Shown piece by piece: positions 30,941 to 61,730 of a stretch of DNA of 64,000 nucleotides; positions within the stretch are counted from its first letter, which is position 1; every line of letters begins with the position of its first letter. The notes under the pieces are model-generated. The model saw only the letters and a list, made by a program, of their open reading frames with translations. It was not told the DNA's origin and searched no databases. The position numbers and the translations under genes are program-made. This DNA comes from Polyangiales bacterium (GTDB taxonomy: Bacteria; Myxococcota_A; Polyangia; Polyangiales; Ga0077539). The DNA is taken from contig JBGARZ010000013.1 of NCBI GenBank assembly GCA_044229975.1, positions 204,781 to 268,780 on the forward strand, in the 5' to 3' direction.

Positions 30941-31012
30941 GCGGGCGTAATTCAGCGGTAGAATGTCAGCTTCCCAAGCTGAACGTCGCCGGTTCGATCC
31001 CGGTCGCCCGCT
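30941..31012 (+). tRNA. tRNA-Gly (anticodon CCC)
   Basis: Acceptor stem GCGGGCG/CGCCCGC, anticodon arm TCAGC-TTCCCAA-GCTGA, T-loop GGTTCGATCCC; followed by CCG, so no encoded CCA. Confidence 0.97.
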
Positions 31013-31026
31013 CCGAAGATTCCTCT

Positions 31027-38522: not shown

Positions 38523-39641
38523 ATGAACGCAGCACTCGCCATCGTCACCACCCTGACCACGTCTCTCTGCGCGTCGCTCGACCGCCGCGCCCTCGCCCTC
38601 GCCCTCACGCGCCTCAAGCACGTCGTCGACCGCCGCGCCTCGCTGCCCGCGCTGGAGGCGGTGCTCCTCGCGGGCACCGGCGACGCCCTCCACCTCACCG
38701 CCACGGACGGCAGCGTCTTCGTGCGGGTCGTTGTGCCCGCGACGGTGACCTCGTCCTGGGCGTCGCTCCTGGTGCCCCTGCACCGCATCCTGGCGGTCGC
38801 CAAGGGGCCCGCCGGCCTGCTCCAGCTCGCCGGGGACCAGATCACCGCCAGGGGCGCCACGCACCGCCTCTCGGCCCTCCCCACGACGACCTTCCCGGCG
38901 GTGCCGCCGCCGGGCGGAGCGGTGCTCTTCACCCTCATGCGTCCGACGCTGGCGCGGGTGCTCCGGCAGGCCAGCTACGCGATGAGCTGCGACGACACCC
39001 GGCCGCACCTGGCGTCGATGCTCATCGAGCGTCGCCGCGGGGAGCTGCTGTTCGTGGCGACCGACGGCCACCGGCTCGCGCGGGTGAGCGTGCCCGACGA
39101 CGGCGCCGAGTTCGCGGTGCTCGTCGGGCGCCGCACGGTCGAGTCCGTCGAGCGCATGCTGGCGGTGGACGGCGGGCTCGTCCGCCTCCGGCGCGAGAGC
39201 GACCGCGTGTGGTTCACCTCGGGCGACGAATGGGTCTCCGGGCCCGTCGTCGACGCGGTGTTCCCCAGCTACGAGCAGGTCATCCCGGCGCGCGCGGGAG
39301 GGAACCTCACGATGACCACGACGGAACTCGCCGCCGCGATCCGCGCGGTGGCAGCGAAGGGGACGCCGACCGTGCGGCTGCGGCTCGACGGCGCCGCGTC
39401 GTCGGTCACGCTCTCCGTCGACGACGGCGAGGGCAACGCCGCCGAGGCGGCCGTCGCCGCGACCTTCGAGGGCGCCGTACCCGAGGCCATCGGCATCAAC
39501 GGGCAGTACCTGCGGGAGATGGTCACGGCCCTCGCGGACGAGGGCGCGACGGTCACGATGCAGGTGACCGGCGAGCTCGACCCCGTGCGGGTGGACGGCA
39601 CGCACGGCACGACGGCTGTGGCGATGCCGCTACGGGTGTAG
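38523..39641 (+). CDS. dnaN: DNA polymerase III beta sliding clamp homologue (element-encoded)
   Basis: RASLPALEAVLL, LTATD, YAMSCDDTRPHL, VATDGHRLA, FPSYEQVIP, IGINGQYL, C-terminal MPLRV. Confidence 0.9.
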   Translation: MNAALAIVTTLTTSLCASLDRRALALALTRLKHVVDRRASLPALEAVLLAGTGDALHLTATDGSVFVRVVVPATVTSSWASLLVPLHRILAVAKGPAGLLQLAGDQITARGATHRLSALPTTTFPAVPPPGGAVLFTLMRPTLARVLRQASYAMSCDDTRPHLASMLIERRRGELLFVATDGHRLARVSVPDDGAEFAVLVGRRTVESVERMLAVDGGLVRLRRESDRVWFTSGDEWVSGPVVDAVFPSYEQVIPARAGGNLTMTTTELAAAIRAVAAKGTPTVRLRLDGAASSVTLSVDDGEGNAAEAAVAATFEGAVPEAIGINGQYLREMVTALADEGATVTMQVTGELDPVRVDGTHGTTAVAMPLRV

Positions 39642-43372: not shown

Positions 43373-44983
43373 CTATCGGTGTCGAAGGAACGACTTATGA
43401 ACCCTCAGAGTCACCCTCCCATCGGGTAGCACGTGAAGTCGTGCGCCGAGCTGACCGAACTTCACCACGCTCCACATCGAATAGAAGCGCTTGAGCACGC
43501 CGATTTCCCAGTAGCTCCTCAACCGCCTCCATTCAACGGATTCAACGTCAGGCGGCATGAGTTGCCATCCAAGAGATATGGCGCGATCGCCGACCCCCGC
43601 TTTGACCTCCTGAAGTGGGACACTCCAGTTCGGCGGCAACAGTGGTCCCCCGACAATCCTTAGACACGCTGCGATCAAGCGCATTGCGATCGCGGATGCA
43701 ACCTCTGAGCTTTCAACGAGAACACTCGTCCACCACTCGCGCGACATTAGACGAAAATACAGGAAGTCCTTCCAAAGAGTCACGGTCATCGACTCCGGGA
43801 GCGGCAACTGGATCGACGCGCTGAACGGCAGAGTGTCCGCGCCCTGTGCCAACCAGGCGCTGACACCTTCCTCGGTCGACTCGCGAGCTACTGGTTCTGC
43901 CAGTGGGACTGACTCCCATTCGACGCCATATTCGCGAGGGTCAATTTCAGCCAAAGGCCCAGGCAGCTCGATGTCGAGGCCTTTTGCTCTAGTCGCGAAA
44001 CGCAAGTATGCACTCCAGAAAGCTCTCACCGCATCGCTGCCAGGCTCGGTCCGTCGCGCAAGCCATGCCACGGTAAGCTCGCAAAGGCGCGACAATCTGT
44101 CTCTTGCCGAGAAGATATCACGTGCTGCCAATGCCTGCGCCCAGCCCCGGTATGCAAGAAACCAAGTCTGGTCGCCGTCGTATCCTCCTCCTAGCGCGAG
44201 AAACCCGGGGGCATTGGGCATTGTCACAAGCACGATGTGACAGCCAACAGGCACGCAAGTCCAGCAGGCACGGCCTGCGGTGCGGCACTGCCTCGGCGTC
44301 CTGTATCGACTATCGCTTCTGAGGGAATCAATCCGACCGTCGAGGGCAAGGAAGGCAATGGCGACTCCGCCGCTGACAGGGAATGGAACGATCGTACCCT
44401 TTGGAAGGACAAGCGAGTGCTGCTGAGGAGCGAAGCTCTGTCCTACATACGCCAGTTGAGGCAGCGCTCGCGCTCTACAGACAGCAGCGGAGGTACATGG
44501 CTGCAACCAAGTCCACTTCGCCACCTTGTCCCGCAAGTCCAAGAAATCAAACACCTCGGTCGACTTCACCTCGACCGCAGAAATTGCACCCGCAGCACGG
44601 ACTAGGAAATCGGGCTGCGGAAACACCGCCCCTTTGACGACCTGTCCTTTGCCGTGCTGCCACGAGACGACTCGCACGATATCCTGGCCTCGGCTGCGAC
44701 CCACGACGAACGACAAGACCTCTCCCAACTCCCCCAGTCGGGATCCGCTCATGCCGCGCGCTTTGCTGCGATAGAGACCTTGCACATAACGTTCGGCATC
44801 GGCAAGGAGCCCCTCTGCGTCTAACTCGATCTCGTCAGCAATAATGTCGAGAGCGTGGTCGTCGATAGACACCGTCACCAAACTGCTTGCAGCGGAGAAC
44901 GTACTCAGCCACGGCGACTGATTGGGCGCCTCCACTACACCGAACAATGGCGCTTGCACTTGCTTGATCTGGAATGTGTGCAT
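43373..44983 (-). CDS. Putative PD-(D/E)xK nuclease, compositionally foreign
   Basis: GELGE helix, PDF...AVEVKS; visibly more A/T-rich than flanking genes. Confidence 0.65.
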   Translation of the reverse strand: MHTFQIKQVQAPLFGVVEAPNQSPWLSTFSAASSLVTVSIDDHALDIIADEIELDAEGLLADAERYVQGLYRSKARGMSGSRLGELGEVLSFVVGRSRGQDIVRVVSWQHGKGQVVKGAVFPQPDFLVRAAGAISAVEVKSTEVFDFLDLRDKVAKWTWLQPCTSAAVCRARALPQLAYVGQSFAPQQHSLVLPKGTIVPFPVSGGVAIAFLALDGRIDSLRSDSRYRTPRQCRTAGRACWTCVPVGCHIVLVTMPNAPGFLALGGGYDGDQTWFLAYRGWAQALAARDIFSARDRLSRLCELTVAWLARRTEPGSDAVRAFWSAYLRFATRAKGLDIELPGPLAEIDPREYGVEWESVPLAEPVARESTEEGVSAWLAQGADTLPFSASIQLPLPESMTVTLWKDFLYFRLMSREWWTSVLVESSEVASAIAMRLIAACLRIVGGPLLPPNWSVPLQEVKAGVGDRAISLGWQLMPPDVESVEWRRLRSYWEIGVLKRFYSMWSVVKFGQLGARLHVLPDGRVTLRVHKSFLRHR

Positions 44984-45253
44984 GCCTGATGCGTCCTACC
45001 AACCGCCCTCGCAGCCGGGTGAAAATCATCACTTAGAGAGCCATTGATTCAGTGGCCTCCAACGCAATCGTCAGCGAAGTCGTGTTCCGCCACATTGTGA
45101 TACGAGAGGGTCGACGACGAATCTGTAGCGAACATCACACGCTCAGTGCCCACGACACCCCGCAAGAGATCGCGTGGCCGGTAGATGGCAATCAGCGCAT
45201 CATCTTGGCTCGCCGTTGTCATCGAGCCCCGGCCCTTCTCGGGTCGTTCCTCA

Positions 45254-46090
45254 TCACAAAACGGGCTCGCCGGTCTTGAACGCCTGGACGCGCAGCGCGA
45301 ACGTCCGCAGCGCCGCCACCAGCCCCGCGTCGTCCACGCGGGCGACTTGGATGACCGAGGCCACCTGGCCTCCATCGTCGACGTCGATGAGGTGATGGTC
45401 GAAGGCGGCGTGGACCTCCGCCTTGGTGACCCGCCTGCCCGTCGCGGTGAGCCTTGTGCCCCGGTGCAGCAGCCAGAGGCCATCCTCGGCATCCCGCCCG
45501 AAGCAGCCGTTGATGCCCCGTTCGGGCCGAACCGTGGTGGTCGGCACGTTGACCTCGACCACCGGGCAGATTCTTGGCACGGCCGGCGAGGGCGCGATCA
45601 GGATCGGCGTCCGGTTGCCCCAGTCCCCTTCGGCGCCAACGCCAACCGCGATCGCGCTCGCACCGCCCCGTGACCAGGTTCTCACCCCCTTGCCGGTGGA
45701 ACCGTGGCCGGGAAAGCTCCAGTGCAGGGAGACCGTCTTCGGCATCTCCTGCTTCAGCGCCGAGCGGAGTTCGCGGAAGGCAGCGCTCACCTCCCGGGCC
45801 TTGAACAACACCCGCATGCCCGCTTCCTCATCGACGCGTTCGGAGGGCGAGCCGTCGTCCACCCCGCCGAACTGTTCGGTGCAGTTCGCGCAGTAGTCGA
45901 GGCCCGACCAGGGGCCGAATCCCTGCTCACCCACACAGCCCTCGCAATGGGCCCCTCCACAGTTATTGCAATGGCTGGCCTCGTCGGCGCTCAGCTGTTC
46001 ACCGCACACCACGCATGGCACAGTGGCATCCCTGTCGGACCCGGCCCGCCCTGTCTTCCGCCTCGCCTTCGTCGATCCACGCTTGCTCAC
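45254..46090 (-). CDS. Hypothetical protein with an N-terminal multi-CxxC zinc finger
   Basis: CVVC, CNNC, HCEGC, CANC; GGAGG RBS; starts 27 bp after the hsdR stop. Confidence 0.7.
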   Translation of the reverse strand: MSKRGSTKARRKTGRAGSDRDATVPCVVCGEQLSADEASHCNNCGGAHCEGCVGEQGFGPWSGLDYCANCTEQFGGVDDGSPSERVDEEAGMRVLFKAREVSAAFRELRSALKQEMPKTVSLHWSFPGHGSTGKGVRTWSRGGASAIAVGVGAEGDWGNRTPILIAPSPAVPRICPVVEVNVPTTTVRPERGINGCFGRDAEDGLWLLHRGTRLTATGRRVTKAEVHAAFDHHLIDVDDGGQVASVIQVARVDDAGLVAALRTFALRVQAFKTGEPVL

Positions 46091-48326
46091 AGACGCCTCC
46101 CCTCCACCGGTGGACCATCACTCCGTGACCGGAGTCTTCACCAACAACAACCACTGGAACACAGCCTCCACCCCACGCGCGTAGGCCTCGTCGGACACGT
46201 CCTCCGGCAGCCCCCCCAGCGCCCGCTTCACGCGCGCCCGCACCTTGTCCCGGAGTTGCTGGTGGAGCTTCCAGTCGAGGGACATCACCTTCGCGACCTC
46301 GCCCGGCAGCGCCTTCGCCACAGCGGTGAGCGCCTCCTTGGGCGCGTCGCCCACGGCCCGCGCGAGGACGTCGCGGAACGCCAACTCATGCTCCGAGAGG
46401 CCCTCGCGCTCGGCGCGCGTCGACTCCGTCTTCAGCGTGCCGAGCAGCTTCACCAACTCCGCGAAGAAGGCCTCGGCGTTGTCGATGCCCTCGTTGTACC
46501 GCGCCACCAGCGCCTCGAAGCGCGCCTGGAGCTCGTCCCGCGTCGGGTTCGCCTGGAGGAGGTTGTTGAGCGCCCGCCGCACGACGGTCTGGAGGCTCAT
46601 CGCGCTGGCGTTGGGCGTCTTCTGCTGCTGCGCGATCGCGTTCGCCAGGCCGTCCACGTCCAGGCGGCGCAGGTCGAGCGGCGCGCGTTCGTAACCCGGC
46701 GACCAGCCCTCGGTCACGCGGTGGACGACCACCGACTCGGCCAACATCGCCCGCACGCGGTCGACGTACTCGCTCACGTCGGGGCGGTCGATGGTGGCCC
46801 GGATGTAGCCCGCCACGTCTGTCAGGAACCCGTGCCGGAGCGCGAAGGGCTTCACCACGTCGTCGAGCACCATCGCCGAGAAGATCCGGTCGACGAGGTT
46901 CACCTGGGCCAGGAAGTTCCGCCGCCGATCGTCCGGGTGGATCAGCGCCTCCTTGGCTGCGTTGCGCAGCGCGAGCCGGTCGGCGAGCGAGACGTTCGGC
47001 GGCTCGCGTGGGTCGACGCCCGCGTCGCGCACCATGGTCTCGGCCGCGTCGATGGACCGCGCGAGCGCCGCGATCAGCGCCTTACGGGGTTGCACCGGGG
47101 TCGCGCCCGCCGGGGCGCCGGGCCGGTTGGCGTAGATCGACAGCGCGCTCCGCAGGTCATGGAACACCCCCGCGTAGTCGACGATCATCCCGCACGCCTT
47201 GCCCGCGTCGACGCGGTTGGCGCGCGCGATGGTCTGCATGAGCGTGTGGTTGCGCATCGGCTTGTCGAGGTAGATGACGTCGCAGCTCGGCACGTCGAAG
47301 CCCGTCATCCACATGCCGCAGACGAACACGATCCGCAGCGGGTGTTTCGGGTCCTTGAAGCAGGCGTCCAGGGCCGGCGGCTCGTTGATCCGCTTGCGGA
47401 TGGGCACGATGTCCAGGGGGAAGCCCTGGAGGTTCGTGGTCGTGACCTTGTGGTTCTTGAAGTCGTCGACCTCGCCCTGCGACTCCGAGATCACCGGCGC
47501 CATCTCGGTCGCGCGCATCCAGGCGATGAGCTCGGCCAGGTCGTCCCGGCGCGTGGACCCCTCGGGCAGCGCCGCGTGCTCGGCCTCCAGCGCCACGAGC
47601 CGGGCGTCCCAGTGGCGCTTCACTCGCACCGACATTTCGACGGCGGTGAAGCGGTCGATCGAGACCACCATCGCCTTGCCGCGCGAGGTGCGCGACGTGT
47701 AGTGCTCGACCAGATCGCGGGCGACCTCGTCGAGCCGCGCGTCGTCCGTGATGAGGCTGTAGAGCTTCGCAAGCTCGCGCCGCAGCACCCGCGCCTCGTC
47801 GGGGTCGAGCGTCGCAGCCTCCAGCATCTTGTAGACGCGCTCGCCCAGCTCGGCGTCGGCGAGCTCGATGCGGGGCAGGCGGTTCTCGTAGTAGAGCGGA
47901 ACCGTGGCCTCGTCGGCGATCGCCTCCTCGAAGGGGTAGATCGAGAGGTAGTCGCCGAACTTGACCTTCGTCTCCCCGTCGGCGGACTTCGACGGCCCGT
48001 GAGCCCTGTCCACGTCGACCAGCGGCGTGCCCGTGAAGGCGAGGTAGCGCGCGTTGGGGAGGGCGTCGCGCATGTTGCTCGCGAAGGTGTCGTACTGCGA
48101 GCGGTGCGCCTCATCGGCCATCACGACCACGTCGTCGCGGGTCGAGAGCGTGGGGTAGGTGGTGCCCTTCACCTCGGTCGAGAACTTCTGGATGAGCGTA
48201 AACACGTAGCGCTGGTCACCTCGGAGCAGCTCGCGCAGGTGGTCGCGCCCCTGGGCCTGCACGAGCACCTTACGCCCCTGCTTCGCGTCGGGCGCCCGCA
48301 CGGCCCCGGCCGACACGAAAGTCTTA

Positions 48327-49661
48327 GGGCGTCGCAGTTTTCTCGTCGGGGTGCTGGTGCGTTCAGTGCGCTCCGTCGCCCCGCACGGCCTTCGGCGCGC
48401 AGAGGATCTCCACGAACCACGCTTCCAAGCCCGCGAGACGCTGGACCTGCGCCTCGACTTTCGCCATCGCCGCACGCGTGAGCGAGATCCCCTTGGCGTA
48501 CGTCGTGGTGACCAGTTGCACGACGGGCGCGACCCCTTTCCAGGTCATGGTCTGAGCGAAGTTCACGACCGTCTCCACGGTGTCCAAGATGCTCCCATTC
48601 CAGTGCTGTTCGAGGACGCCCCAGCAGCGCTCCACGGGGTTGTACTTGCTGTGGTACGGCGGGTAGTAGGCGAGGCGTACGTTGATCCGATGGGCCTGCG
48701 CAAAGGCCACGATCCGCGACAGAAACTGTGTGCGACGGCTCTGGTTTTCGGGCCCGTTGTCCTGAAGCAAAAGGAGCGTATCGACCTCCGGAAAGCGCGC
48801 CCGGTGAGCGCACCACCACGCCTCGATCCGATCGACGATGAAGTCCGCCGTGACGGGCCCCGTCGCCAGAGACACCGTCAGCTCGTTGTGGGCTGTGAGC
48901 AGGATGCCGTACGGCGTCACCTTCGCCTCGGCCCCGTGGTCGTGATCGAGCGCAAACACCAGCACGCGACTGACGCCGTACCGAGAGAACTCCCCCACCT
49001 TGATGACGGCCTTGGCGTCCATCGACAGTTCCAGCACGTTGGGCGAACGCGCGGCCGTCGCCCGCTCACGACTCATCTGTTCGAAGATGGCGTCCGTCGC
49101 GGCGACCTTTTTTTCGGCTTGGTCTTGGCCACGGCGCGCAGCCCATATCCCAGGTCGTTGAGCTTGACGCGGATCGTCTCCTCACACGGCAACTCCTCGT
49201 CCGTGTACCCCTTCTGCGCGATGAGTTGCCGACGGACTTCGGCCGACGTGATGCGTGTGTAGAGCCGCTGCGTTTGAAAGCGCGGATCGGTCTGACTCTG
49301 ACCATCGACGAGGTCGCGCAGATCCCGCATCAGGTTCGGCAGTCGCGATTGCGCCGTCGGACGTCCGCCGCCGGAGCGACCGTCGAGGCACTCGATCCCG
49401 GAGCGCAGCTCGTTCTTGCCTTTGCGCAACGTCCGCTCGTCCCAGTCGAGCGCGCGAACGGCTCGGTTCATCACGCCGTCGAACAGGTCGCGCACCGTCC
49501 GCGCCATGAACCGCCGACGTTCGCTGCCCTTCAAGGCGGCGGCCGTCTCCTTCAACACCTTCGTCACGTTGGTCGCGAGTTGCATGCCCGACTGCCTGGG
49601 AGCTCTGGCGAGCGCTGGACACCCTACGCCCGTTCAGCCCGAGCACTTTGCTGCGGCGCCC
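48327..49661 (-). mobile_element. ISAzo13-family insertion sequence, 1335 bp
   Basis: Terminal inverted repeats GGGCG(T/C)CGCAG; TTA duplicated at 48324-48326 and 49662-49664. Confidence 0.92.
48363..49585 (-). CDS. ISAzo13-family DDE transposase in two ORFs joined by a -1 frameshift
   Basis: SQTDPRF, SMDAKA, DNGPEN, YYPPYHSKYNPVERCW; A7 run at 49108-49114 gives KPKK-VAATDAIF after -1 slip. Confidence 0.9.
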
Positions 49662-50709
49662 TTATAGATCTGGTCGTCGAGGTCGTCGCGATCGGTGATC
49701 ACCACGAAGGTCCAGTTGCCCGGCACCTTCCGCAGCGCCTTCTGCGAGAAGAACACCATCGAGTAGCTCTTGCCCGAGCCCTGCGTGTGCCAGAAGACGC
49801 CGAGGGGCGTACCCTTGGACGGCGCCCCCACTCGGCGCGACGGGGCTTGGGTCTTCGATCGGCGTAGCGCCTCGACGGCGTTGTTCACGCCGAGGAACTG
49901 GTGGTTCTGCGCGACGATCTTCGCGAGGCCGCCGGGCACCTCCACGAAGAGCGTGAAGTTCTCGATCAGGTCGAGCATCCGCGCCGGGTCGCAGACGGCG
50001 CGCAGGAGGGTCGCCTGCCCGGGTGCCGGTGGCTCATCCTCGCGGGCGACGCGCTTCCAGGGCTTGAAGTGCTCCCAGCCGCTGGTGAGCGTTCCCAGGC
50101 GCGCATCGCTCCCCTGCGCGAACATCACGAGCGCGTTGAAGAGGAAGAGGCGCGGGATGGTCACGCGGTAGTCGGTGAAGTTCTCGTCGAAGGCCGCGCG
50201 CAGCGGGACGTCGGGAGACTTGAGCTCTACGAAGAGCAGCGGCAGACCGTTGACGAAGCCCACGAGGTCCGCCCGGCGGGTGTACACGTCGCCCCGCAGC
50301 TCGAACTCGCGCACGGCCACGTAGCTGTTGCGCGCAGGCGTGTCCCAGTCGATCACGCGCACCCGCACCGTTTCGGTGCCGCTGTCGTCGGTCTTCACCT
50401 CCACCGGCACGCCGTCGCGCAGGAGCGCGTAGAGTTCCTGGTTGGCGCGTTCGAGCGAGAGTGCGCTGCGGTCGCGCAGGAGCTCGTTGAGCGCGGCCTC
50501 ACGCGCCCCTGCGGGGACCGTGGGGTTCAGCACCTCGACCGCCTCGCGCAGTCGTCGCGGGAGCACGTGCTCGGTGTTGCTGCCCCGGCCGTAGGTCGAC
50601 ACCGCCCCACCGAAGGTCTCCTTGAAGCCGTTGTCGACGGTCCAGTGGAGCGCTTCGAGCTGCCCTTGGAAGACTGTGGCGACCGCCTGCTCCTTAAGGT
50701 TCGCGGAGG

Positions 50710-51945
50710 TCATGCGAGTTCCTTCTTGCGACGCCCGTGACGCGGCGAGTTGGCGGATGGCAAGTCGGGTGGTGTGTCGTCAACGGCCTCAGGGGGCGGC
50801 AGCGGCAACCGCGAGACGTCAACCTCGCCCGATAGCAACTTGGGAAGGAGAAACCCGCGTAGCTTTCGGAGGGTCGCATTGCGAGTCCCAAGGGACTGCA
50901 ATAGGGCGATGCAGGGTTCCAAGATCTCGTTGAGTGCGAGACGCTCGCTCTCGGTGCCGAGCGGAACTGCATACGTTGCCATGTCTTCCCACCGCGCACG
51001 CGGCATCTTCGACCCATTCGCTTTATTGCTGATTTCGGCAACGAAGTCATCGCTCGACGCGCACATCAACACGGCCAAGCGATCTAGCGCGCTGCGCGCG
51101 CGCATTACAATCGCGTCCGCAGAGGTTACGCCATCGAAAGCTACCGGGCCGACTTTGTGAAAGTAGGGCCGGATCTTCCCAAACAGGAGATCGCCAGCTT
51201 CGAACGGAATCTTCGAACTCACCACGTCCCGCGTGTATCCATGATCGGAGAGGTCGAACGATCGCCGGGGAATGTGTTCCAACCCGATATAGCGCGTATC
51301 GCTGTCGATTTCGGCAGGACTGACCTGCATCCGCACAAGATGCACGAGATCACCCAAAGGAGCCGTGACACGTCTTGCGTCGCGGGCCCATCGCGACCAA
51401 TAGAGACGTGCCACATCTTCAGACATATGAACGCGGCGAAGATTGTTCTCAATGAGGCGCGAGATCCCATCGAGGAAGCCTGCGACGCGCCGCTGTGTTG
51501 GGAGATCTGGCACTCTGAGCGGAACCCGACGGAGTTCGCTCTGTTTGATGCCAGCCACCGTTGTGCCGGTAGCGCGTTTGCGTAGTTCGCCCTGAACCTG
51601 CGGACCCTGGAGCAGGTGATAGAGATATGAGGGATCGATTACGGAGGACTTCGCTCGAAGCAGGATCACGCGTTGGGCAAGCGCCACCCTCGGATCGTCG
51701 ACGCGAGCTACCTGTCCCAGTGGCGCTTCGGTCGTGATGAGAACGTCTCGTTCGCGCGGAAGTCCACGACGCATCCACGTGTCGTAGTCATCTTCTGCAA
51801 TGTACTCATTTTCCGCCTGAAGAACGAAGCCGTCTTTGATGACTTTGGCTGTCACGAGCAGCACGCCGGCATTCGACTTCTCGGGCGTCTTGCCTCGATA
51901 GTCAATCAGCACTTCAACAGCCTCTTCGAGTTCAACCGTCCGCAT
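50710..51945 (-). CDS. hsdS: Type I R-M specificity subunit S
   Basis: DYRGKTP, VPDLPTQRRVA..L, GDLLFGKIRPYF, LRKLRGFLLPKLLSGEV; two-TRD layout. Confidence 0.93.
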   Translation of the reverse strand: MRTVELEEAVEVLIDYRGKTPEKSNAGVLLVTAKVIKDGFVLQAENEYIAEDDYDTWMRRGLPRERDVLITTEAPLGQVARVDDPRVALAQRVILLRAKSSVIDPSYLYHLLQGPQVQGELRKRATGTTVAGIKQSELRRVPLRVPDLPTQRRVAGFLDGISRLIENNLRRVHMSEDVARLYWSRWARDARRVTAPLGDLVHLVRMQVSPAEIDSDTRYIGLEHIPRRSFDLSDHGYTRDVVSSKIPFEAGDLLFGKIRPYFHKVGPVAFDGVTSADAIVMRARSALDRLAVLMCASSDDFVAEISNKANGSKMPRARWEDMATYAVPLGTESERLALNEILEPCIALLQSLGTRNATLRKLRGFLLPKLLSGEVDVSRLPLPPPEAVDDTPPDLPSANSPRHGRRKKELA

Positions 51946-53491
51946 GAGTCGGCTCCAGAAGAAGACGCATCGCCTCACTCACGGTCGCTTCCTGTACATG
52001 AGCCTCCGCCGTAAGGGTCTCGAACTCCTCTTGCAACTCCATCAACCGTTCCTCGAAGTCGACCTCGTCGGCGTCGGTCTTCGCGCCTACGCCCACGTAG
52101 CGGCCAGGATTGAGGCTCCAGCGGTTCTCCTCAATGACCTTGCGCGAGACCTTCTTGCAGAGTCCTTCCACGTCGCTGTACGCCGTGCCTATACGCTCCC
52201 TTGTCAACGCCAACCCGCCATGCCGGTTCTCGACCCCCTTACCTCTCCACAACCTCACAATGTTCGCCAGAAACTCCACTTGCGCGGGGGTAATGTTTCG
52301 ATGCGCTCGGTCCACCTGTTCGAAGACCTCACGGGCGTCAATGAATAGCACTTCGTCGGCGCGTGGCCCCTTTGCTTTTGCCCGATCGAAGAACCATAGC
52401 GTTACCGGCAGCGTGACCGTATAAAAGAGGTTGGTCGAGAGCGAGACGATCACGTCCACGGCGCCGCTCTTCACGAGATCGCGACGCACTTCGAGGTCGC
52501 GACCACCCGCGTCGCTGGCGCTGTTGGCCATGACAAAGCCTGCGCGACCGCCTGGGTTGAGGGCACTATAGAAGCGCTGGATCCACAGGTAGTTGGCCTT
52601 ATCGCCCGATGTCATGCCCCAGGGGTAGTGGACGCGGTCGTCCTTCAAGCGCGCCTTATCGACGCCCTTGAGGTTGAAGGGCGGGTTTGACATCACGAAG
52701 TCGAAGCCCTCCTTCACGTCCTTCTCAACCGGGAACTCGTAGAGCGAGGAGACTACCTGGCGGATGGACCCCTGAAGCCCGTGAATGGCGAGGTTCATTC
52801 GGCAGAGCTGGATGGTCTGGGCCATCTTCTCCTGGCCGAACACGCTGAGCCCCTTGCCCTTGTGTTCAGCCACGAAGCGCGCGCTCTGCACAAACATCCC
52901 GCCTGAGCCGCACGCGGGGTCGAAGATGCGCCCCTCAAAGGGTTCGAGGATCTCGACGATGAGCCGCACCACTGAGAACGGTGTGAAGTACTCGCCGCCC
53001 TTCTCCAGGGTGTTCGGCGCGAGGGCGCCCAGGAAGTACTCGTAGACCCGGCCGTAGACGTCCCCCTCGGGCGACTCTTCGAGCACGTTGAAAGCCTTGA
53101 GCAGGTCGCGCAGGATCTTCTTGTCGATCTTCGCGTAGTCCTTCGGGAGCACGCCCTTGAGGGCGTCGTTGTCTTCCTCGATGGCGCGCATCGCGTCGTT
53201 GAGGACCTTCCCCAGCTCGGCGCCGTCGGGGAGGTCCAGGAGCGCGCCCCAACGGTGCTCGGGGCGGAGGTACACGGCCCCTTCGGCGCGGTAGTCCTCG
53301 GGCTCGGGGGCGCCACGCCGACGACCCGCCTTGAGCTTCGCGTGGGCCTTCGCGAACCCCTCGTCGGCGTACTTCAAGAACAACAGCGCGAGCACCGGGA
53401 GCTGGTACTCCGTCGGCTTGAGCGCGGTGCCGGCCCATAGGGCGTTGGCGGCCTTCCAGAGCGTCGACTCGAAATCCTTGGGCAGGGGCAT
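51932..53491 (-). CDS. hsdM: Type I R-M methyltransferase subunit M (m6A)
   Basis: LWKAANAL, GEYFTP, FDPACGSGG, NPPF, SLNPGRYVG. Confidence 0.96.
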   Translation of the reverse strand: MPLPKDFESTLWKAANALWAGTALKPTEYQLPVLALLFLKYADEGFAKAHAKLKAGRRRGAPEPEDYRAEGAVYLRPEHRWGALLDLPDGAELGKVLNDAMRAIEEDNDALKGVLPKDYAKIDKKILRDLLKAFNVLEESPEGDVYGRVYEYFLGALAPNTLEKGGEYFTPFSVVRLIVEILEPFEGRIFDPACGSGGMFVQSARFVAEHKGKGLSVFGQEKMAQTIQLCRMNLAIHGLQGSIRQVVSSLYEFPVEKDVKEGFDFVMSNPPFNLKGVDKARLKDDRVHYPWGMTSGDKANYLWIQRFYSALNPGGRAGFVMANSASDAGGRDLEVRRDLVKSGAVDVIVSLSTNLFYTVTLPVTLWFFDRAKAKGPRADEVLFIDAREVFEQVDRAHRNITPAQVEFLANIVRLWRGKGVENRHGGLALTRERIGTAYSDVEGLCKKVSRKVIEENRWSLNPGRYVGVGAKTDADEVDFEERLMELQEEFETLTAEAHVQEATVSEAMRLLLEPTHADG

Positions 53492-53495
53492 GGGC

Positions 53496-56282
53496 TCAGT
53501 TCTCGGAGGAGCGGTGCGGGCAGAAGGAGCGGAAGTCGCAGTGGGTGCACTGGACGCCGGGGGTCGCGTCGAAGCGCCCGTCGCGCAGGTCGCTGGCGGC
53601 GGAGTTCAGTGCCTGGAGTGACCCCGCGACGGCCGCGTCGCCCAGATCAACCGGGTGGCGCGCGGTGCCCTTGGCGGCGGTGAGGTCGTGCAGGTACGCG
53701 GCGCGGACGGTGAGCCCCTCACGGCGCGCGGCTGCCGCGTAGACCTGGAGCTGCGCAGCCGCTTCGTCGTCCGCCTGCACGGGGCGGGTCTTGTAGTCGA
53801 GGATCGCGAGCTGGCCGACAACCCCACCCTCGCGATCGAGGATCACGTCAGCGCGCCCCTCGACGTCGGCGGACTCCAGGTGGAGAGCGAGCGGGCGCTC
53901 GACGGCCCAGTGGCGCGCGAGGTCATCGCGCCAGTCGGTGAAGCAGGTCTTCACCACCCGCCGTGCGCGTCGTTCGAGGGCGTCGTAGGCCGCCTGGTCG
54001 GCGTGCGGCAGGTAGAACTCCTCCGCGAGCAGGGCGTCGACCGCTTCAGGCACCGGGTCGGCCCCGCTGGCGCGCACGAGTTCCACCAGACGCCGCAGGA
54101 GGTGGTGCACCGCGCGCCCGTAGCCCGCCTCGCGTACCACCGGCGAGGCGAAGCCCAGCCGCGACGCGAGCCAGTAGCGGTGCGGGCAGGCGACGTAGGC
54201 AGCAAGCGCGCTGTAGGAGAGCGACGGCCGCTCGTCGGCCGCCTGCGGTGTGTGCGGGGCGGCGTCGGGCAGCGGCAGCGGATCATCGCTCACGGTGATC
54301 GAGCCCGGCAGCAAGCCCTGGAGGAGCGGCGAGGCCTTGACCTTGTCCCCGTCCTCGTCGCGCTGGTGAAGCGAGAGGTACAGGTGGTCCCGCGCGCGGG
54401 TGATCGCGACATAGAACAGCCGCCGCTCGTCGTCGTCGGAGCCCTCGTACCGCTCGGCCGGGAAGCGATCGCGCGGGAGGAGCCACGTCCCTCTCCGCCC
54501 GGTCATCTTCGAGGGGAAGACGTTGAGGTTGAGGCACGGCACGAACACCACCGGCCACTGGAGCCCCTTGGCGCCGTGCACGGTGCTAACGGTCACCGCC
54601 GGAGCGGCCGCGTCGAGGTCGCCGGCGAAGTCCTCGTAGGCGGACTGCGCGTAGAACGAGAGGTAGTCGCTGAGGGCGCGCAGGAAGGCCGGGCCCCCGG
54701 CGTGTCCCGCACCGAAGGAGACCACGCCGTCGGTGGCCTGCGTCCACGCGCGGCGCGTGACGGACTCGAAGTCGGCCAGGATCTGGCTGAAGCGGGCGAG
54801 CACACCGAGCCGGTCGGTGGCTTCACCGCCCGCCCAGGTCGACGCACCGAGCGAGGCGAGCAGGCGGTAGAAGTGCCCCACGAGGTCGGCGGCCCCCTCG
54901 TGGGGGAGCCGCGTGCGGAGGCTCAGCAGGTCGGCGCGCAGCCGCTGGCTCTCCTCCGCCGAGCGCCCGAAGGCGGACGCGAGCCGCCCGAGGAGTTCGT
55001 CGAGGGCGATGGACACCTCGCGGCGGGCGCGCGCCCGGTAGAAGGTGTCGCGGCCACAGAGCCACGCGAAGAGGTCCCCCAGCACCTCGGCCTCCGGCTG
55101 GAGGAACAGGCCCTCTCGCCCGGAGCAGCGCCACGGGATCGACGCCTCCGTGAGGGCGGCCAGGAAGGGGGCGGCGTCGTTCTTCGTCGAGCGGAGGAGG
55201 ATCGCCACGTCCGCCGGACTCGCGCCGCGATCGAGCAGCGCGCGGATCGCCTTGGCCACGCGGGCCGCCTCGTGCGCCGGGTCGCGCGCGCCCGAGAGGT
55301 GCACCGCGTGGGGGCCGTCGCCCCGCGCAGCGGTGATGACCTTGGGCAGTCGCCCGCCGATGGTCTCGGCGAAGCGACCCGCGAGGGCGACGATGGGCGC
55401 CACCGAGCGGCGGTTGACGCCGAGGGTCTCGCGCACGGCGCCCGTCTCCTGCTGGAACGTCTGGAGGTAGGCCACCGACGACCCGCGCCACTGGTAGATG
55501 GCCTGGTCGTCGTCGCCCACCACGCAGAGCGAGACGGGGCCGCTGCCGAGCCGTCGGATGAGGCGCGCCTGGGCGGGGTTGATGTCCTGGAACTCGTCGA
55601 CCACCAGGTGGCGTAGCTGCGCGTGCACGGCGGCGAGCACCGGGTCGCGCCCGAGCTCGCGGAGGGCCAGCGCGACGCACTGGGCGTGGGTGAGCACGTG
55701 GTAGCGGTCGAGCAGCGCCAGGTACCGCTCGTAGATCTCGCGGAACGTGCCCGGCGGGAGGTCTTCTAGTGAGAGGCCCTCGTTCTCCACCACGTCGATG
55801 CTGCGCAGGAAGGAGCGCACGGCCTGGACCCTGAGCTTCTGGCCGAGCGCGTCGAGTCCGAGCGCGTCGTACTCCCGGAGCAGGAGGCCGATCACGCGGT
55901 GGGCGTCGTACAGGTCGAAGGTCGCGAAGCGCGGCGCGTGGTCTTGCAGGAAGCGCATGCACCAGGCGTGGATGGTGCCGACGAACATGGGCGCGAGGCG
56001 TTCGAGTGCGAACCCCGGCATGCGCTCAGCGGCGCGGCGCAGGATGCGGGCGCGCAGCTCGGCGGCGGCGGCGCGGGTGAAGGTGAACGCGAGGATGCCG
56101 ACGGGCGCGACGCCGTCGGAGAGCAGCACCGCGACCCGCTGCGCCACCGTCTCGGTCTTGCCCGAACCCGCGCAGGCGACGACCTGGAGGTGACCTCCCC
56201 GGTGCTCGATGATCGCGCGCTGCTCGGCCGAGTAGGCGACGGTGGGGGTGCCAGGTGTCTGTGGTGTCCCGGCGTCGTCCAT
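53496..56282 (-). CDS. UvrD/Rep SF1A helicase fused to a C-terminal PD-(D/E)xK nuclease with a Cys cluster
   Basis: ACAGSGKT, VDEFQD, GDDDQAIYQWRG, TVHGAKGLQW, ERRLFYVAITRA; ACP...GRAD...ILDYKT...CTHCDFRSFC. Confidence 0.92.
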   Translation of the reverse strand: MDDAGTPQTPGTPTVAYSAEQRAIIEHRGGHLQVVACAGSGKTETVAQRVAVLLSDGVAPVGILAFTFTRAAAAELRARILRRAAERMPGFALERLAPMFVGTIHAWCMRFLQDHAPRFATFDLYDAHRVIGLLLREYDALGLDALGQKLRVQAVRSFLRSIDVVENEGLSLEDLPPGTFREIYERYLALLDRYHVLTHAQCVALALRELGRDPVLAAVHAQLRHLVVDEFQDINPAQARLIRRLGSGPVSLCVVGDDDQAIYQWRGSSVAYLQTFQQETGAVRETLGVNRRSVAPIVALAGRFAETIGGRLPKVITAARGDGPHAVHLSGARDPAHEAARVAKAIRALLDRGASPADVAILLRSTKNDAAPFLAALTEASIPWRCSGREGLFLQPEAEVLGDLFAWLCGRDTFYRARARREVSIALDELLGRLASAFGRSAEESQRLRADLLSLRTRLPHEGAADLVGHFYRLLASLGASTWAGGEATDRLGVLARFSQILADFESVTRRAWTQATDGVVSFGAGHAGGPAFLRALSDYLSFYAQSAYEDFAGDLDAAAPAVTVSTVHGAKGLQWPVVFVPCLNLNVFPSKMTGRRGTWLLPRDRFPAERYEGSDDDERRLFYVAITRARDHLYLSLHQRDEDGDKVKASPLLQGLLPGSITVSDDPLPLPDAAPHTPQAADERPSLSYSALAAYVACPHRYWLASRLGFASPVVREAGYGRAVHHLLRRLVELVRASGADPVPEAVDALLAEEFYLPHADQAAYDALERRARRVVKTCFTDWRDDLARHWAVERPLALHLESADVEGRADVILDREGGVVGQLAILDYKTRPVQADDEAAAQLQVYAAAARREGLTVRAAYLHDLTAAKGTARHPVDLGDAAVAGSLQALNSAASDLRDGRFDATPGVQCTHCDFRSFCPHRSSEN

Positions 56283-56491
56283 CGTCCCCTCCATCCCGTG
56301 CTCCTGCGCGATCGAGCCGGCCTGCGGCGTGCCGAGGATCGCCGCGCGATCATCGACCCGTCAACGACCATCGACGCGAGCGGACCGGGCCCAGCGCACC
56401 CTTCGCCGGTCGGCACCGATCGCTGAGCCACCCGGAGACGATCCCTCTCGATCCTTCCAATTTCCGATCGCTAAGGCCGATACTTTGCGCG

Positions 56492-59400
56492 ATGACATCC
56501 GACCAGGACCTGAAGTTGCGCGGAAAGCATCCGGGCCCGGATGAGGTGCGCGCGGCCGTCACCGGAATACTTGCGGCCGTCGCCGCCACGCGAGAGCTCG
56601 ACCAGGCGAACGAGGCGACGACGAGAGTCGGGTTGGTCGACAAGCTGCTGGACGCGATGGGTTGGCCCTTTGGCGAAATCAAGCGCGAGCAACCGTCTGG
56701 AACGGGCCTTTTCCTGGACTACGAGTTGCGGGTCCGCGGAGAGCCTTGGATGGTCGTTGAGGCGAAGCGTACCGAGAGAACCTTTCGCTTGGCGCGCCCC
56801 ACCGCATCGGGGCGCGCGACGCCGCTGAGAAGCCTCCAGAGCCTCCTCACCTCCGGCGGGCAACCCCTACGCGAGGTTTTGAATCAAGCCGCCGGATACT
56901 GCAACGATCGTGGCATCCCCCTCGCGGCGGTGACAAACGGCACGCAGTGGGTGTTCTTCAGGGGCCTATCCGCCCGACATCGCCAGTGGATGGACGGCGT
57001 TGCGATCGCGTTCGACCGCGCCGATTTAGTCGAGGCATCCGGTGAGTTCTTCGGGTGCCTTTCCAGAAGCTGCGCTGGAACTCCCTATCTCCCCGACCTC
57101 CTCGACCGGGTCACGCATGTGGACCCACCTGCCGCGCATGTTCCCCGCGACCACATCGAACTCCGACGACCGACGATCGACCCCCACACCGCCGCCGTCC
57201 TCGGCTCCGTCTGCGACTACCTGCTCGCCGACATCTACGGGTCCAACCGTCAAGCGATGCTGAAGCAGTGCTACATCGAGCCGGGCGTCAAGGGGGAGTT
57301 CGAGCGCAGCATCGAGCGCCTCCTGCGAGACACCGCCAATCCGATCACGCTGCTCGATAGCCAAAGGGACGATGGCCCCAAGCGAGCGGCCGACGATCGA
57401 AAGGGCGAGGAATCGAATCTGCTCGACGGCGACAGTCGCGACTTTGTCGAGCACGTCACCCTCCTCGACCGAACGACCGAGATTCAAAACCCCGTCGTCG
57501 TCGTCGGTCACGTCGGAGCCGGCAAGACCACCTTCCTGCATCGCTCGCTATCTCACTTCGAGCCGAACAAGGGGGCCAAAGGCAACAACGAGGCCTTCTA
57601 CGCTCTCGTCGACTTGGAGGGCCACGGCGAGGGAGGCGCCGTGGAGGCCAATCAGGAGGAGCAAAAGGTCGCGGAGGACATTCTGCGAGGGCTAAAGTAC
57701 TCCGCGCAGGAGGCCGTGCGCAGCCGTAAGGCAGGCCGCTCCGACGCTGGTGAGACCAACCTCGAACGGCTTCTCGAACGCACCGACCCCTACTCCCTCG
57801 CGACACTCCAAAGCCTCTTCGGCGGGCGTCTGAAGAACGATAGGAAACTGGGGGAGAAGGTGTGGGCGAAGGACCCCGGCGCGTGGGATCGCAAGGAGTA
57901 CGAGATCCTTTCTGAGGCCAAGAAGGATGCTGTCGATCTGCTTGTGCGCTTCGTCAAGCACCTCCGGGAGCACTTCCACCGCGCCGACAAACGAAGGTAC
58001 CCCGTCCTGATCGTACTGGACAACCTGGACCAGGCGACGGACGACTACCAACGCTGTATCTACGGGCTGGCGCGCCAGTTGGCGCGTCGAACCCACGCCA
58101 TCATCGTCGTGTGTCTTCGCGAGGACACGTACAATTCGGGGTTGGGACCCAACGGCTTTCTTGCCTCAAGCAACCTCCAGTTCGTGTTTCACGTGAAGGC
58201 GCCTCCGCTCGACCATGTCGTTCGGCAGCGGGCGAAATTCGGGAAGCAAGCCGTCGAGTCGGGCAAGCTCCCCACGGCCCTCGCGGTCGAGTCCGACGCA
58301 TTGATCGGCGTGTGTGACCTTCTCGGGGACGTGTTCTTGACGCCCAAATCGGAAGCGATCGAGTTGGCGTCATCCGTTTCTGGTCACAACATCCGCGAAG
58401 CCCTCGGGATCGTTCGATCGGTGGTCGCCGGCCGCCCCTCCATCGCCGGTGAGGCCAAGAGCAGTGCCGCATTCGCGCTCGATTGCATTCTCGCCACGCG
58501 CAGCCAAGAGTCCGTCCGGAATCTGCTGGGCCCCGGCAACTGCCTGGACGCGGACCCATGGAACCCTCCATGTCACGCCCTGCGTGTCCGGATGCTGGCA
58601 TACCTATCGTGGTCCTTCGAATCGAACAACGATCGCGTTCTGCACGAGATGACGGACCTGATTCTGGCGCGCTTCTCGTCGTGGGGATACCCGCTCGGGC
58701 TTGTGAAAATGGCCGTGGCCTCTCTGCTCGCGGCCCGGTTGATCCGTCCCCGCACCAAGGCGGATTTCTCCCCACTCCGAGCCCCCTACACGTTGCCTCA
58801 GGGGCTGTCACTCACCGCATCGGGCAGGGTGCACCTCACCCGGCTCGTGAACCTCCCCGTGTACCGGGCGGCCACCGCCCTGAGGGTCAGGTGGTACGAC
58901 AAGGAATTCTTTACGGAGTTCGTGCGTGCCGCCCAGGCCGCTGGCGGGGATGAGGGTCCCAGTGTCGCGGACATCGCCGCGTCGAAGGCCCTCGACATCT
59001 TTGACTCCTACCTTGCCGTCGCGGTCGGACGCGAGGACGGGTACCTAGGTTTGAGCGCAGCCAAGCCGCAGTGGCTTTCGGAAGTGATATCCCGATCGGC
59101 GCAGGTGCTGCCATCCACGGATCTTCTGCAAGCGAAGGCCACGATCGTTCCCCCTCCCCGCCCCTCACGCCGTGCGAAGTCCAAAGACGTCGACAAGCAA
59201 CTCCCGCTCTTCGAGGAGACTGGACAGCCCCCGTCGTCATTAGGGAAGCTCCTGGCAGACGCCTCCTTTGGAGGCGACCCCTGGGTCGTCAGGGTCTTGT
59301 GGGCGCTTGAGTGGGGACGAGAGCGCGGCACACCGGCCATGTTGGAATCTGACATCTGGCGAACGCTCAACGAGCACACTTCGCTGCGATTCGAGCAGGC

Positions 59401-59530
59401 GGACCTCGAACGCGCGCTGCGCTCGCTCAATCGGAACACCACCGATTCTCTGTGGTCCCTCTCGAAGAAGCGCTACCAGATCACCCCTGCGGGCAGCCTC
59501 CTCGTCACGGCTTTGGCGCGGCCCGAGTAG
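56492..59530 (+). CDS. HsdR_N-like restriction-endonuclease domain fused to a P-loop ATPase and a C-terminal winged helix
   Basis: NEATTR...LDY...VVEAKR...QAAGYC...AVTNG.QW; Walker A GHVGAGKTT; Walker B LIVLDNLD; terminal YQITPAG. Confidence 0.8.
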   Translation: MTSDQDLKLRGKHPGPDEVRAAVTGILAAVAATRELDQANEATTRVGLVDKLLDAMGWPFGEIKREQPSGTGLFLDYELRVRGEPWMVVEAKRTERTFRLARPTASGRATPLRSLQSLLTSGGQPLREVLNQAAGYCNDRGIPLAAVTNGTQWVFFRGLSARHRQWMDGVAIAFDRADLVEASGEFFGCLSRSCAGTPYLPDLLDRVTHVDPPAAHVPRDHIELRRPTIDPHTAAVLGSVCDYLLADIYGSNRQAMLKQCYIEPGVKGEFERSIERLLRDTANPITLLDSQRDDGPKRAADDRKGEESNLLDGDSRDFVEHVTLLDRTTEIQNPVVVVGHVGAGKTTFLHRSLSHFEPNKGAKGNNEAFYALVDLEGHGEGGAVEANQEEQKVAEDILRGLKYSAQEAVRSRKAGRSDAGETNLERLLERTDPYSLATLQSLFGGRLKNDRKLGEKVWAKDPGAWDRKEYEILSEAKKDAVDLLVRFVKHLREHFHRADKRRYPVLIVLDNLDQATDDYQRCIYGLARQLARRTHAIIVVCLREDTYNSGLGPNGFLASSNLQFVFHVKAPPLDHVVRQRAKFGKQAVESGKLPTALAVESDALIGVCDLLGDVFLTPKSEAIELASSVSGHNIREALGIVRSVVAGRPSIAGEAKSSAAFALDCILATRSQESVRNLLGPGNCLDADPWNPPCHALRVRMLAYLSWSFESNNDRVLHEMTDLILARFSSWGYPLGLVKMAVASLLAARLIRPRTKADFSPLRAPYTLPQGLSLTASGRVHLTRLVNLPVYRAATALRVRWYDKEFFTEFVRAAQAAGGDEGPSVADIAASKALDIFDSYLAVAVGREDGYLGLSAAKPQWLSEVISRSAQVLPSTDLLQAKATIVPPPRPSRRAKSKDVDKQLPLFEETGQPPSSLGKLLADASFGGDPWVVRVLWALEWGRERGTPAMLESDIWRTLNEHTSLRFEQADLERALRSLNRNTTDSLWSLSKKRYQITPAGSLLVTALARPE

Positions 59531-60562: not shown

Positions 60563-61387
60563 TCACTTGTCTGACGGGGGGGTCTTCGTCTTGCTGTCGG
60601 AGTGATTAGAGTTCAAGACGTCTCGCGTCGCGTTCTTCTCACGGTCTTTGATGAATGATTTGAGTTTCTCCGCCCGGCCGGGGTGGCGCACCTTGCGGAG
60701 GGCCTTGTCCTTGATCTCGGCCATGCGTTCCGATGAAACCTCAAAACGTTCGGCAACTTCGTCGAGGGTCGGCTCGGATCCTCTCGGAAAGCCAAATCGC
60801 ATCCGCAGAACTTGTTCTTCGCGCGAGGTCAACGTCTTCAGGACCTTCCGCAGTTGCTCCCACTGAACGTCTGCCAGCATCGAATCGAGTGGTGAGAGCG
60901 CCTCCGCCGGAAGGTCGTCCAGCGCCTCGGAGTCATGCAGATTGTCCTGCGGATCCCGGGTCGCTTCGAGGATGGATCGGACCGCTTCCGGTGGCACCTC
61001 CAACTTCTCGGCGATCTCCTCCGGTGTCGGCTCTCGATGAAACTCGTCTCGAAGGTATCCTGCGATGCGCCGGATATCGCGTCCCTGCTTAACCAGATGC
61101 TCCGGAACATGGACGACCCTGGCGCCATTCTTGACGGCCCGTTCGATCTTCCAGCGGATCTGCCGCCCCGCATAGTGCGAGAAGGGAGCACCCTGTTCCG
61201 GCTCGTAGGTGCCACTGGCGTTCCAGAGGCCGATCTCCCCCTCCTGCAACAGGTCCTCCCACGGCAGGCCACGGCCCCGAAAATCCGCAGCAACCTCCAC
61301 CACGAGCGCGCGGTGCTGAGCGAACAGTGCGATCCGCCTTGCTCTGGTCTCGCCGTCCGTCGTCCGATCCGTAGGTCTGTCAGTCAT
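60563..61387 (-). CDS. RpoD-derived sigma70-family factor (regions 2-4, 274 aa) with altered DNA-contact residues
   Basis: RGL..EDLLQEGEIGL, REPTPEEIAEKL, TLTSREEQVLRMRFG, KALRKVRHP; GGAGAGG RBS before MTDRP. Confidence 0.88.
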   Translation of the reverse strand: MTDRPTDRTTDGETRARRIALFAQHRALVVEVAADFRGRGLPWEDLLQEGEIGLWNASGTYEPEQGAPFSHYAGRQIRWKIERAVKNGARVVHVPEHLVKQGRDIRRIAGYLRDEFHREPTPEEIAEKLEVPPEAVRSILEATRDPQDNLHDSEALDDLPAEALSPLDSMLADVQWEQLRKVLKTLTSREEQVLRMRFGFPRGSEPTLDEVAERFEVSSERMAEIKDKALRKVRHPGRAEKLKSFIKDREKNATRDVLNSNHSDSKTKTPPSDK

Positions 61388-61730
61388 TGACCACCTCTCC
61401 TCCGCTGACCAGGAAGCCGGGACCAGGGGTCGTCCCGCGATTGGAGGTACCCTGCCATAGAGGGCTGGTGCGCGGCCAGCCTTCTCGACGACAGCTAGCC
61501 ACGAGCCGTCGGTCATCGCGGTGCCTGTCCACCAGTGGGTGGCGCCGCAGGTCTGACCTCGGGTGAACAGGTGTGGAGTGTCCAGCGACGCAAGCAGATC
61601 GGGTCCCGATGCGTGCTGGGTCTTCAATGCTATTGGGATCGATGAGCTGAGAGAAGCACACTGCTATGGGTCGGGTGCCCGGCGAGCATACGCCGTATTG
61701 CGCCTGTCCGGACCTGCCTACCCTTGGTCC

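Follow-up and report, generated by a model that had tools for sequence, protein, structure and literature searches.

The stretch of DNA analysed here, referred to as the window, comprises 64,000 nucleotides (nt) of contig JBGARZ010000013.1 from a Polyangiales bacterium, and all locus coordinates follow its numbering. It carries a gene for a UvrD-type helicase fused to a nuclease (the helicase-nuclease), followed on the same strand by the genes hsdM, hsdS and hsdR of a type I restriction-modification (R-M) system and by two smaller genes. A sequence-only reading had put these six genes forward as a candidate extended defence system. The features of the cluster are:

53496..56282, minus strand: helicase-nuclease, 928 amino acids (aa), with a UvrD SF1A helicase and a C-terminal RecB/Cas4-like PD-(D/E)XK nuclease.
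51932..53491, minus strand: hsdM, type I methyltransferase, 519 aa, intact, with DPACGSGG and NPPF motifs.
50710..51945, minus strand: hsdS, specificity subunit, starting at ATG 51945 or GTG 51978 (Pfam, PADLOC).
49662..50713, minus strand: 5' part of hsdR, with the nuclease domain (HSDR_N) and Walker A, truncated by an insertion sequence (IS); the empty site is in frame.
48327..49661, minus strand: ISAzo13-family IS, 1,335 bp, with a TAA target duplication and transposase open reading frames (ORFs) at 49073-49585 and 48363-49076.
46118..48326, minus strand: 3' part of hsdR, with the SF2 motor and C-terminal domain (Pfam, PADLOC, in-silico joining).
45254..46090, minus strand: 278-aa gene of unassigned function with a conserved C-terminal domain of ~185 aa.
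43373..44983, minus strand: 536-aa gene of an unnamed family with a PD-(D/E)XK-like motif (alignment of homologues).

The gene order that had been claimed is correct, and all six genes are on the minus strand. The helicase-nuclease is separated from hsdM by a 4-bp gap (GCCC); an alternative start, ATG at 56294, would lengthen its product to 932 aa. Counted from the ATG at 51945, hsdS overlaps hsdM by 14 nt; with the GTG at 51978 as its start the overlap is 47 nt. The hsdR gene, which starts at 50713, overlaps hsdS by 4 nt. These overlaps are as the sequence-only reading had them; hsdR, however, is interrupted, being split by ISAzo13. The 278-aa gene follows hsdR after 27 bp and the 536-aa gene follows the 278-aa gene after 270 bp. 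All three genes that define a type I R-M system are present, with matches in Pfam, PADLOC and NCBIfam. A scan for sigma-70-like promoters gave no sites, and predicted terminators were fewer than in shuffled sequences, so that the scan is uninformative.

The helicase-nuclease has three domains above the Pfam cut-off, PF00580 (UvrD-helicase), PF13361 (UvrD_C) and PF12705 (PDDEXK_1), and a weak Cas4 match in NCBIfam (TIGR00372, E 4.6e-9) that is below the cut-off. The motor shows Walker A, DEFQD and the remaining SF1A motifs. The nuclease part shows the D...DYK and QxxxY motifs and a 1+3 cysteine pattern (C699, C912, C915 and C921 in the 928-aa numbering), and the motor, nuclease and four cysteine residues are kept in 108–109 of 109 aligned homologues. 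The complete SF1A motor and the AddB/Cas4-like nuclease read from the letters alone are in this way confirmed by Pfam, motifs and alignment. The AlphaFold2 model has a predicted local distance difference test (pLDDT) value of 92.9, and its fold matches UvrD/PcrA first and then AddAB, RecB and AdnAB (Foldseek), with no close relative among solved structures. The motor presumably moves in the 3'->5' direction and the cysteines presumably hold an Fe-S cluster; for both the basis is general knowledge of such families and the 2017 paper on UvrD-Cas4 proteins.

The protein shares with AddAB, AdnAB and RecB the SF1A motor, the C-terminal RecB-family nuclease, QxxxY and the 1+3 cysteine pattern, as well as matches in sequence and fold. 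It differs from AddAB and AdnAB in being a single gene that is mobile and patchily distributed, with the host AddAB encoded elsewhere, and its NCBIfam scores to AddA, RecB and PcrA are far below cut-off. The statement that no AdnAB or AddAB partner is adjacent proved right: an AddB-AddA-PcrA-like cluster of the host is on contig C8, with best matches below curated cut-offs, and among the genes that recur next to the helicase in the first 94 family loci there is no AddB-like cluster that could make up a heterodimer of the AddAB/AdnAB type. There is also a likeness to Gabija in that a UvrD-like SF1 helicase stands in a defence context and GajB profiles match the window motor. However, these profiles (about 430–725 positions) cover the motor only and not the fused nuclease, and PADLOC found no GajA (ATPase-TOPRIM) among 10 window proteins, which places the locus outside Gabija. 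The suggested PADLOC check identifies the hsd genes, but its models do not include one for the full-length helicase-nuclease, where GajB and RTasHel profiles match the motor only.

A homologue search scored 7,990 candidates and gave 3,635 matches. Of the best 120, the majority have a length of ~920 aa and share the domain set of the window protein, and close homologues carry a Polyangiales label at source. The 103 full-length members, window included, form one clade with a local support of 100 (FastTree, whole protein), separate from the 12 sequences of PcrA and 5 of a different UvrD-nuclease fusion in the tree. This other fusion, ~970 aa long, comes from Acidobacteriota (L239-L243), where housekeeping genes surround it and no methylase is near. 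The five fusions fell outside the defence-linked clade and were used as controls only.

Judged against a published description (architecture, clade and contexts), the predicted protein fits the UvrD-Cas4 fusion family, which was described computationally as one clade by Hudaiberdiev et al. 2017 (PMC5704561). The available text of that paper gives type III Mod/Res as the commonest neighbours, followed by Dcm/Vsr, predicts an ancillary role by site-specific unwinding and cleavage, and states that the hosts retain their own RecB/AddA-type enzyme (PMC5704561). The sequence-only reading did not recognise a named system, but the protein is of a kind already known, the defence-linked fusion having been published in 2017. 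The features in common are the fusion of an SF1 UvrD helicase with a pfam12705 Cas4-like nuclease, a clade apart from UvrD/PcrA, and, at the family level, type III and then Dcm contexts. The differences are that the window gene heads hsdMSR and that relatives adjoin BREX, DISARM (L140) and type III CRISPR. Neither a type I R-M nor a BREX context is named in the available 2017 text, and its seven supplementary files gave no matches to HsdM, HsdR, COG0286, COG0610 or PglZ, although COG0210, an expected positive, also gave none (PMC5704561). What is new here relative to that text is the type I R-M context and, in relatives, BREX. No experimental study of UvrD-Cas4 was found in the literature searched, a scope that leaves out most subscription papers.

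The gene neighbourhoods of the family were compared in a census of loci from relatives, from order and phylum samples and from two collection scans (among ~600 stretches listed). After removal of duplicates and type I test loci 208 loci were scored; 103 of these hold a full-length member, 30 of them from the window's own bacterial family, and kin are not independent. Partial members, with score or coverage below threshold, were excluded before counting. Neighbours were identified by clustering, Pfam and PADLOC and then counted by tblastn with marker proteins. Of the full-length loci, 51 have flanks of 5 kb or more on both sides, and 41 of these 51 carry methylation-defence genes within 5 kb, compared with 0/40 PcrA loci and 0/4 non-clade UvrD-nuclease fusion loci. 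The family is strongly tied to R-M and methylation systems by this comparison, and the rarity of such neighbours that would have spoken against a defence link was not seen. The partners in the 51 well-flanked loci are type III (18), BREX (10), Dcm (7), type I (6) and other type II (2), some loci being counted twice; for all 103 loci they are type III (37), BREX (12), Dcm (11), type I (10) and type III CRISPR (3). In 23 of the 51 a core partner gene is no more than 300 bp away, and co-directional, convergent and divergent layouts all occur. Distribution is patchy: 19 of 31 genomes of the window's family and, with two candidates scored per genome, at least 11 of 401 phylum genomes have a member. 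The plasmid collection gave no match at E 1e-60, a cut-off too strict for distant members.

A separate helicase clade lies beside BREX-type clusters (BrxC, PglZ, BrxD, DEAD helicase, PglX), mostly in convergent orientation (L012, L014, L015, L016, L018, L019, L020, L220, L221, L222 and L228). Three unrelated members (L034, L229 and L232) adjoin type III CRISPR operons (Cas10/RAMP).

The type I context itself is narrower. Downstream sequence of 2 kb or more is available for 82 loci; hsdM is within 2 kb downstream of the helicase in nine of them, all in the window's own bacterial family, and less than 100 bp downstream in five. The position directly upstream of hsdM that had been put forward for counting is thus recurrent but restricted to a single family, and type III partners are commoner. 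Type I partners are found in 9/30 loci of this family versus 1/73 elsewhere (L145, where the helicase is downstream of hsdR). The nine helicase-hsdM loci span three HsdM lineages that are about 25–35% identical. The closest homologues with available DNA (L212, L213 and L004; 74–81% identity) head type I cassettes whose HsdMs are 74–90% identical to that of the window; L007, L009, L010, L217 and L218 pair the helicase with the two other lineages, at 26–29% identity to the window HsdM. Two small genes separate the helicase from hsdM in L004 and L212, and in L213 at least one does so. These slot genes (L004:10447-11881, L212:1345-2759, L213:12227-12859) are not in the window and consist of a PNP-phosphorylase-like gene (L004, L212) and a gene of ~210 aa with no assigned function. 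Short contigs from two unrelated public runs also span a direct helicase-hsdM junction.

It could be argued that the adjacency has no functional meaning for the hsd genes and reflects inherited co-location on islands of one bacterial family. All nine helicase-hsdM loci do come from one family, and the approximately unbiased (AU) test does not reject one common origin for the helicases linked to type I systems (p 0.49, L008 and L105 left out). A first AU result rejecting a single origin (p 4.8e-60) had pointed to independent origins and was discarded as an artefact of forcing L008 outside; the context of L008 is unseen, and it is nested among type I rows in the tree. Against co-location, the link is kept across HsdMs as different as those above, with gaps below 100 bp in five loci, and members of the same helicase family in many phyla are linked to type III and Dcm systems. 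This explanation is considered very improbable. A 16-member helicase clade from the one family includes nine type I loci, three type III loci, three with no methylase and one short locus.

A reciprocal search with PF04313 gave 29 matches in 16 of the 31 family genomes, seven of which share a contig with a nearby helicase. Twenty of the other 22 were fetched: five have hsdM without helicase, one has hsdM at a contig end, 12 have no hsdM visible, and two probably continue helicase-hsdM contigs across assembly breaks, as inferred from 74–83% identity and contig ends. With two extra systems of the window genome that the PF04313 search had missed, the tally of family type I loci with visible hsdM surroundings is nine with and at least seven without the helicase (n=16). 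Both further type I systems of the host genome are without it. The seven loci without the gene imply that the helicase-nuclease is an optional accessory of type I R-M. The recurring helicase-hsdM link of the proposed extended system is thus upheld by nine loci in three HsdM lineages, but the cluster is not a dedicated type I system, and in particular not one of six genes. A comparable accessory gene within a type I R-M locus is PrrC, which the available text of a review describes as a tRNA anticodon nuclease in the type IC EcoprrI locus, triggered by inhibition of the R-M complex (PMC12707154). The window protein differs in being a predicted DNA motor-nuclease from a family found with many system types.

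The window copy of the system is restriction-dead in this assembly. The ISAzo13 element (48327-49661) splits hsdR, so an intact HsdR, as needed for type I restriction, is not encoded here, and on sequence grounds the protein is inactive in this assembly. Removal of the 1,335-bp element in silico restores a single ORF of 1,085 aa with all checked HsdR motifs, and the restored protein is 74–83% identical to the intact HsdRs of relatives. Three further full copies of ISAzo13 in the genome are 100% identical, and there are three contig-end pieces; the identity of the full copies indicates that the insertion in hsdR is recent. Cuts could still come from another type I system, on contig C8, which looks intact. 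Among listed holders in public sequencing runs none had a share above 0.06 and none was from RNA; the contigs from such runs stem from relatives and are uninformative on fixation of the IS in the source population. The window locus is a poor model for study because hsdR is broken; L213 and L217 carry intact-looking sets.

One of the identical ISAzo13 copies, at L267:8407-9741 (G000:C19:26406-27740), is in the 3' end of hsdS of a second type I system. This hsdS loses ~81 codons; the specificity profiles are nearly complete upstream of the element and the effect is uncertain. Two of the four identical full copies fall in hsd genes, which make up ~0.2% of the genome.

The window gene is read here as a UvrD-Cas4 helicase-nuclease that would act as an optional accessory of methylation-based defence by degrading foreign DNA from restriction ends, a reading to which we give about an even chance. 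By homology to AddA, AdnB and RecB, the SF1A motor would load on a DNA end or nick, move 3'->5' and feed strands to the Fe-S RecB-family nuclease. Degradation would make the restriction cut irreversible with no need for the host AddAB, an enzyme that phages can block with end-binding and inhibitor proteins. Recognition would probably be of a DNA product and not of a partner protein, since the partners (three HsdM lineages, Mod/Res, Dcm/Vsr and BREX) are unrelated and their orientations varied. The available review text notes that RecBCD degrades DNA after restriction cuts, is blocked by lambda Gam and is a phage target (PMC12707154), so a private copy that travels with R-M genes would make sense.

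Housekeeping repair is argued against by the host AddB/AddA/PcrA genes and by the patchy, island-borne distribution of the family. Another proposal is that the enzyme protects its host from its own system, resecting self-inflicted restriction breaks or Vsr-type nicks and easing the establishment of new R-M or BREX islands. The fold matches to the repair enzymes AddA, AdnB and RecB are consistent with this, as are the Dcm/Vsr loci (11/103), which are repair-type contexts, and the first position in the operon, which would suit early expression; self-cleavage by type I enzymes is given as a known hazard in the same review (PMC12707154). The host, however, already has AddAB, no AddB-like partner is encoded alongside the gene, and many type I systems persist without the helicase. 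Host protection is regarded as quite unlikely.

Several observations weigh against an accessory that degrades DNA after restriction. Eight of the 51 well-flanked loci, including that of the window genome's own paralogue on contig C18, have no marker system, and two are beside type III CRISPR only. The BREX neighbours (10/51) fit poorly, as the type 1 BREX section of the available review text is headed 'restriction without cleavage' (PMC12707154), and the CRISPR neighbours and methylase-free loci likewise fit post-restriction degradation less well. Seven of the 16 family type I loci lack the helicase. Two loci, L009 and L010, have a helicase gene broken into two parts; the hsd genes next to it in L010 look intact. 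The slot upstream of hsdM in relatives sometimes holds other defence genes. In the comparison of 41/51 with 0/40 and 0/4, the markers were drawn from the family's own neighbours, the controls could hide other methylase families, and these controls (PcrA and UvrD-nuclease fusion loci) include no unrelated defence-island genes.

Some of these points would suit an enzyme that defends alone, an Nhi- or Hna-like anti-phage helicase-nuclease acting on replication intermediates or DNA ends and riding in a cargo slot at the head of R-M and BREX operons. Partners and orientations vary, members without a methylase exist, and the slot upstream of hsdM can hold a cyclase and TIR gene (L260) or an ATPase pair (L257). 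Nhi, in the available text of its description, is a single nuclease-helicase that defends alone, with an N-terminal nuclease and a PF09848 SF1B-like helicase (10.1101/776245). The likeness is a PD-(D/E)XK nuclease and an SF1 helicase in one defence protein. The domain order of Nhi is the reverse, however: the window protein has an N-terminal SF1A motor, a C-terminal four-cysteine nuclease and no PF09848 match. The linkage is also strongly biased to methylation systems and not to any defence gene, and it survives inversions: nearly half of the well-flanked loci have a core gene no more than 300 bp away. A stand-alone role is regarded as unlikely, though less so than host protection.

The slot occupants in or upstream of type I operons are cyclase, E2 and cNMP-TIR genes (L260:6211-9371), an ATPase pair (L257:14806-16808) and Septu-like PtuAB (L218:12948-16441).

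A broader form of the accessory reading is put forward tentatively, as a possible but doubtful extension. UvrD-Cas4 may be a universal plug-in executioner of methylation-based immunity, a mobile, single-chain substitute for RecBCD that would be swapped among type I, II and III R-M, BREX and DISARM loci and would destroy the invader after recognition despite a block of AddAB or RecBCD. If this is so, the type I and BREX pairings extend UvrD-Cas4 to all main methylation-based systems, and the completion of restriction when phages block RecBCD or AddAB would be explained. The swapping of partners narrows the function to something common to all systems, most plausibly the fate of DNA after recognition.

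The two genes downstream of hsdR show a different pattern. The 278-aa gene had been described as a Zn-finger gene of the cassette. Its GTG start is preceded by a good ribosome-binding motif, but the Cys-rich N-terminal ~92 aa are missing from all four homologues, which begin at the internal Met, and the gene is missing from the fetched loci of relatives; it is not a conserved part of the cassette. The C-terminal domain of ~185 aa is conserved, and one homologue fuses a longer C-terminal part. A search of the ESM Atlas with the 278-aa protein gave no usable match.

The 536-aa gene had been taken for a nuclease of the same cassette. It is a real gene: 33 homologues were found, 116 representatives are found at E up to 1e-10, and E88, D125, E138 and K140 (an E...PD...EVK, PD-(D/E)XK-like motif) are invariant together with three cysteines. 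The protein has no match in Pfam, PADLOC or NCBIfam. Its fold matches are all sub-threshold, led by Holliday-junction resolvases (Hjc-type, best E 0.06), and the ESM Atlas gave only leads under 0.9. Membership of the cassette is not borne out, given the 270-bp gap, a GC content at third codon positions (GC3) of 0.64 versus 0.92–0.96 for the helicase and hsdR, and its absence beside relatives; the gene is present in 0/30 other genomes of the window's bacterial family, and neither it nor the 278-aa gene has a match in the fetched loci of relatives. The 536-aa protein is likely a separately acquired nuclease outside the cassette, and the two genes are best read as separate island cargo. The 536-aa family is a candidate stand-alone defence nuclease, and one homologue is in a viral-collection contig, downstream of large genes unmatched by the markers used.

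The host genome is 10.0 Mb with about 71% GC. Its second helicase-nuclease, the C18 paralogue, is 55% identical, and no methylase was found within 7–10 kb of it. The hsd/helicase cluster of the window is cargo of a tRNA-Gly island. The island boundary and the gene on the other side of the helicase-nuclease are:

30941-31014, plus strand: tRNA-Gly(CCC).
30971-31017, no strand assigned: 47-bp att repeat, with a second copy on contig C15.
31027-32337, minus strand: tyrosine integrase.
56492..59530, plus strand: divergent P-loop ATPase, AAA_16/STAND-like, in whose N-terminal part inspection by eye shows a motif like that of restriction nucleases; island cargo.

The ATPase is 1,012 aa with AAA_16 and a weak nSTAND5 match and resembles nuclease-STAND defence proteins; it has no match in any fetched locus of relatives, including those beside their helicases. 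The partner 47-bp repeat places the second island end apparently on contig C15. Within the window the island (30941-64000) also encodes a DUF932 protein, a sigma-54 activator, a helix-turn-helix regulator, a DNA polymerase III beta-clamp homologue (38523-39641) and a sigma-70 factor (60563-61627).

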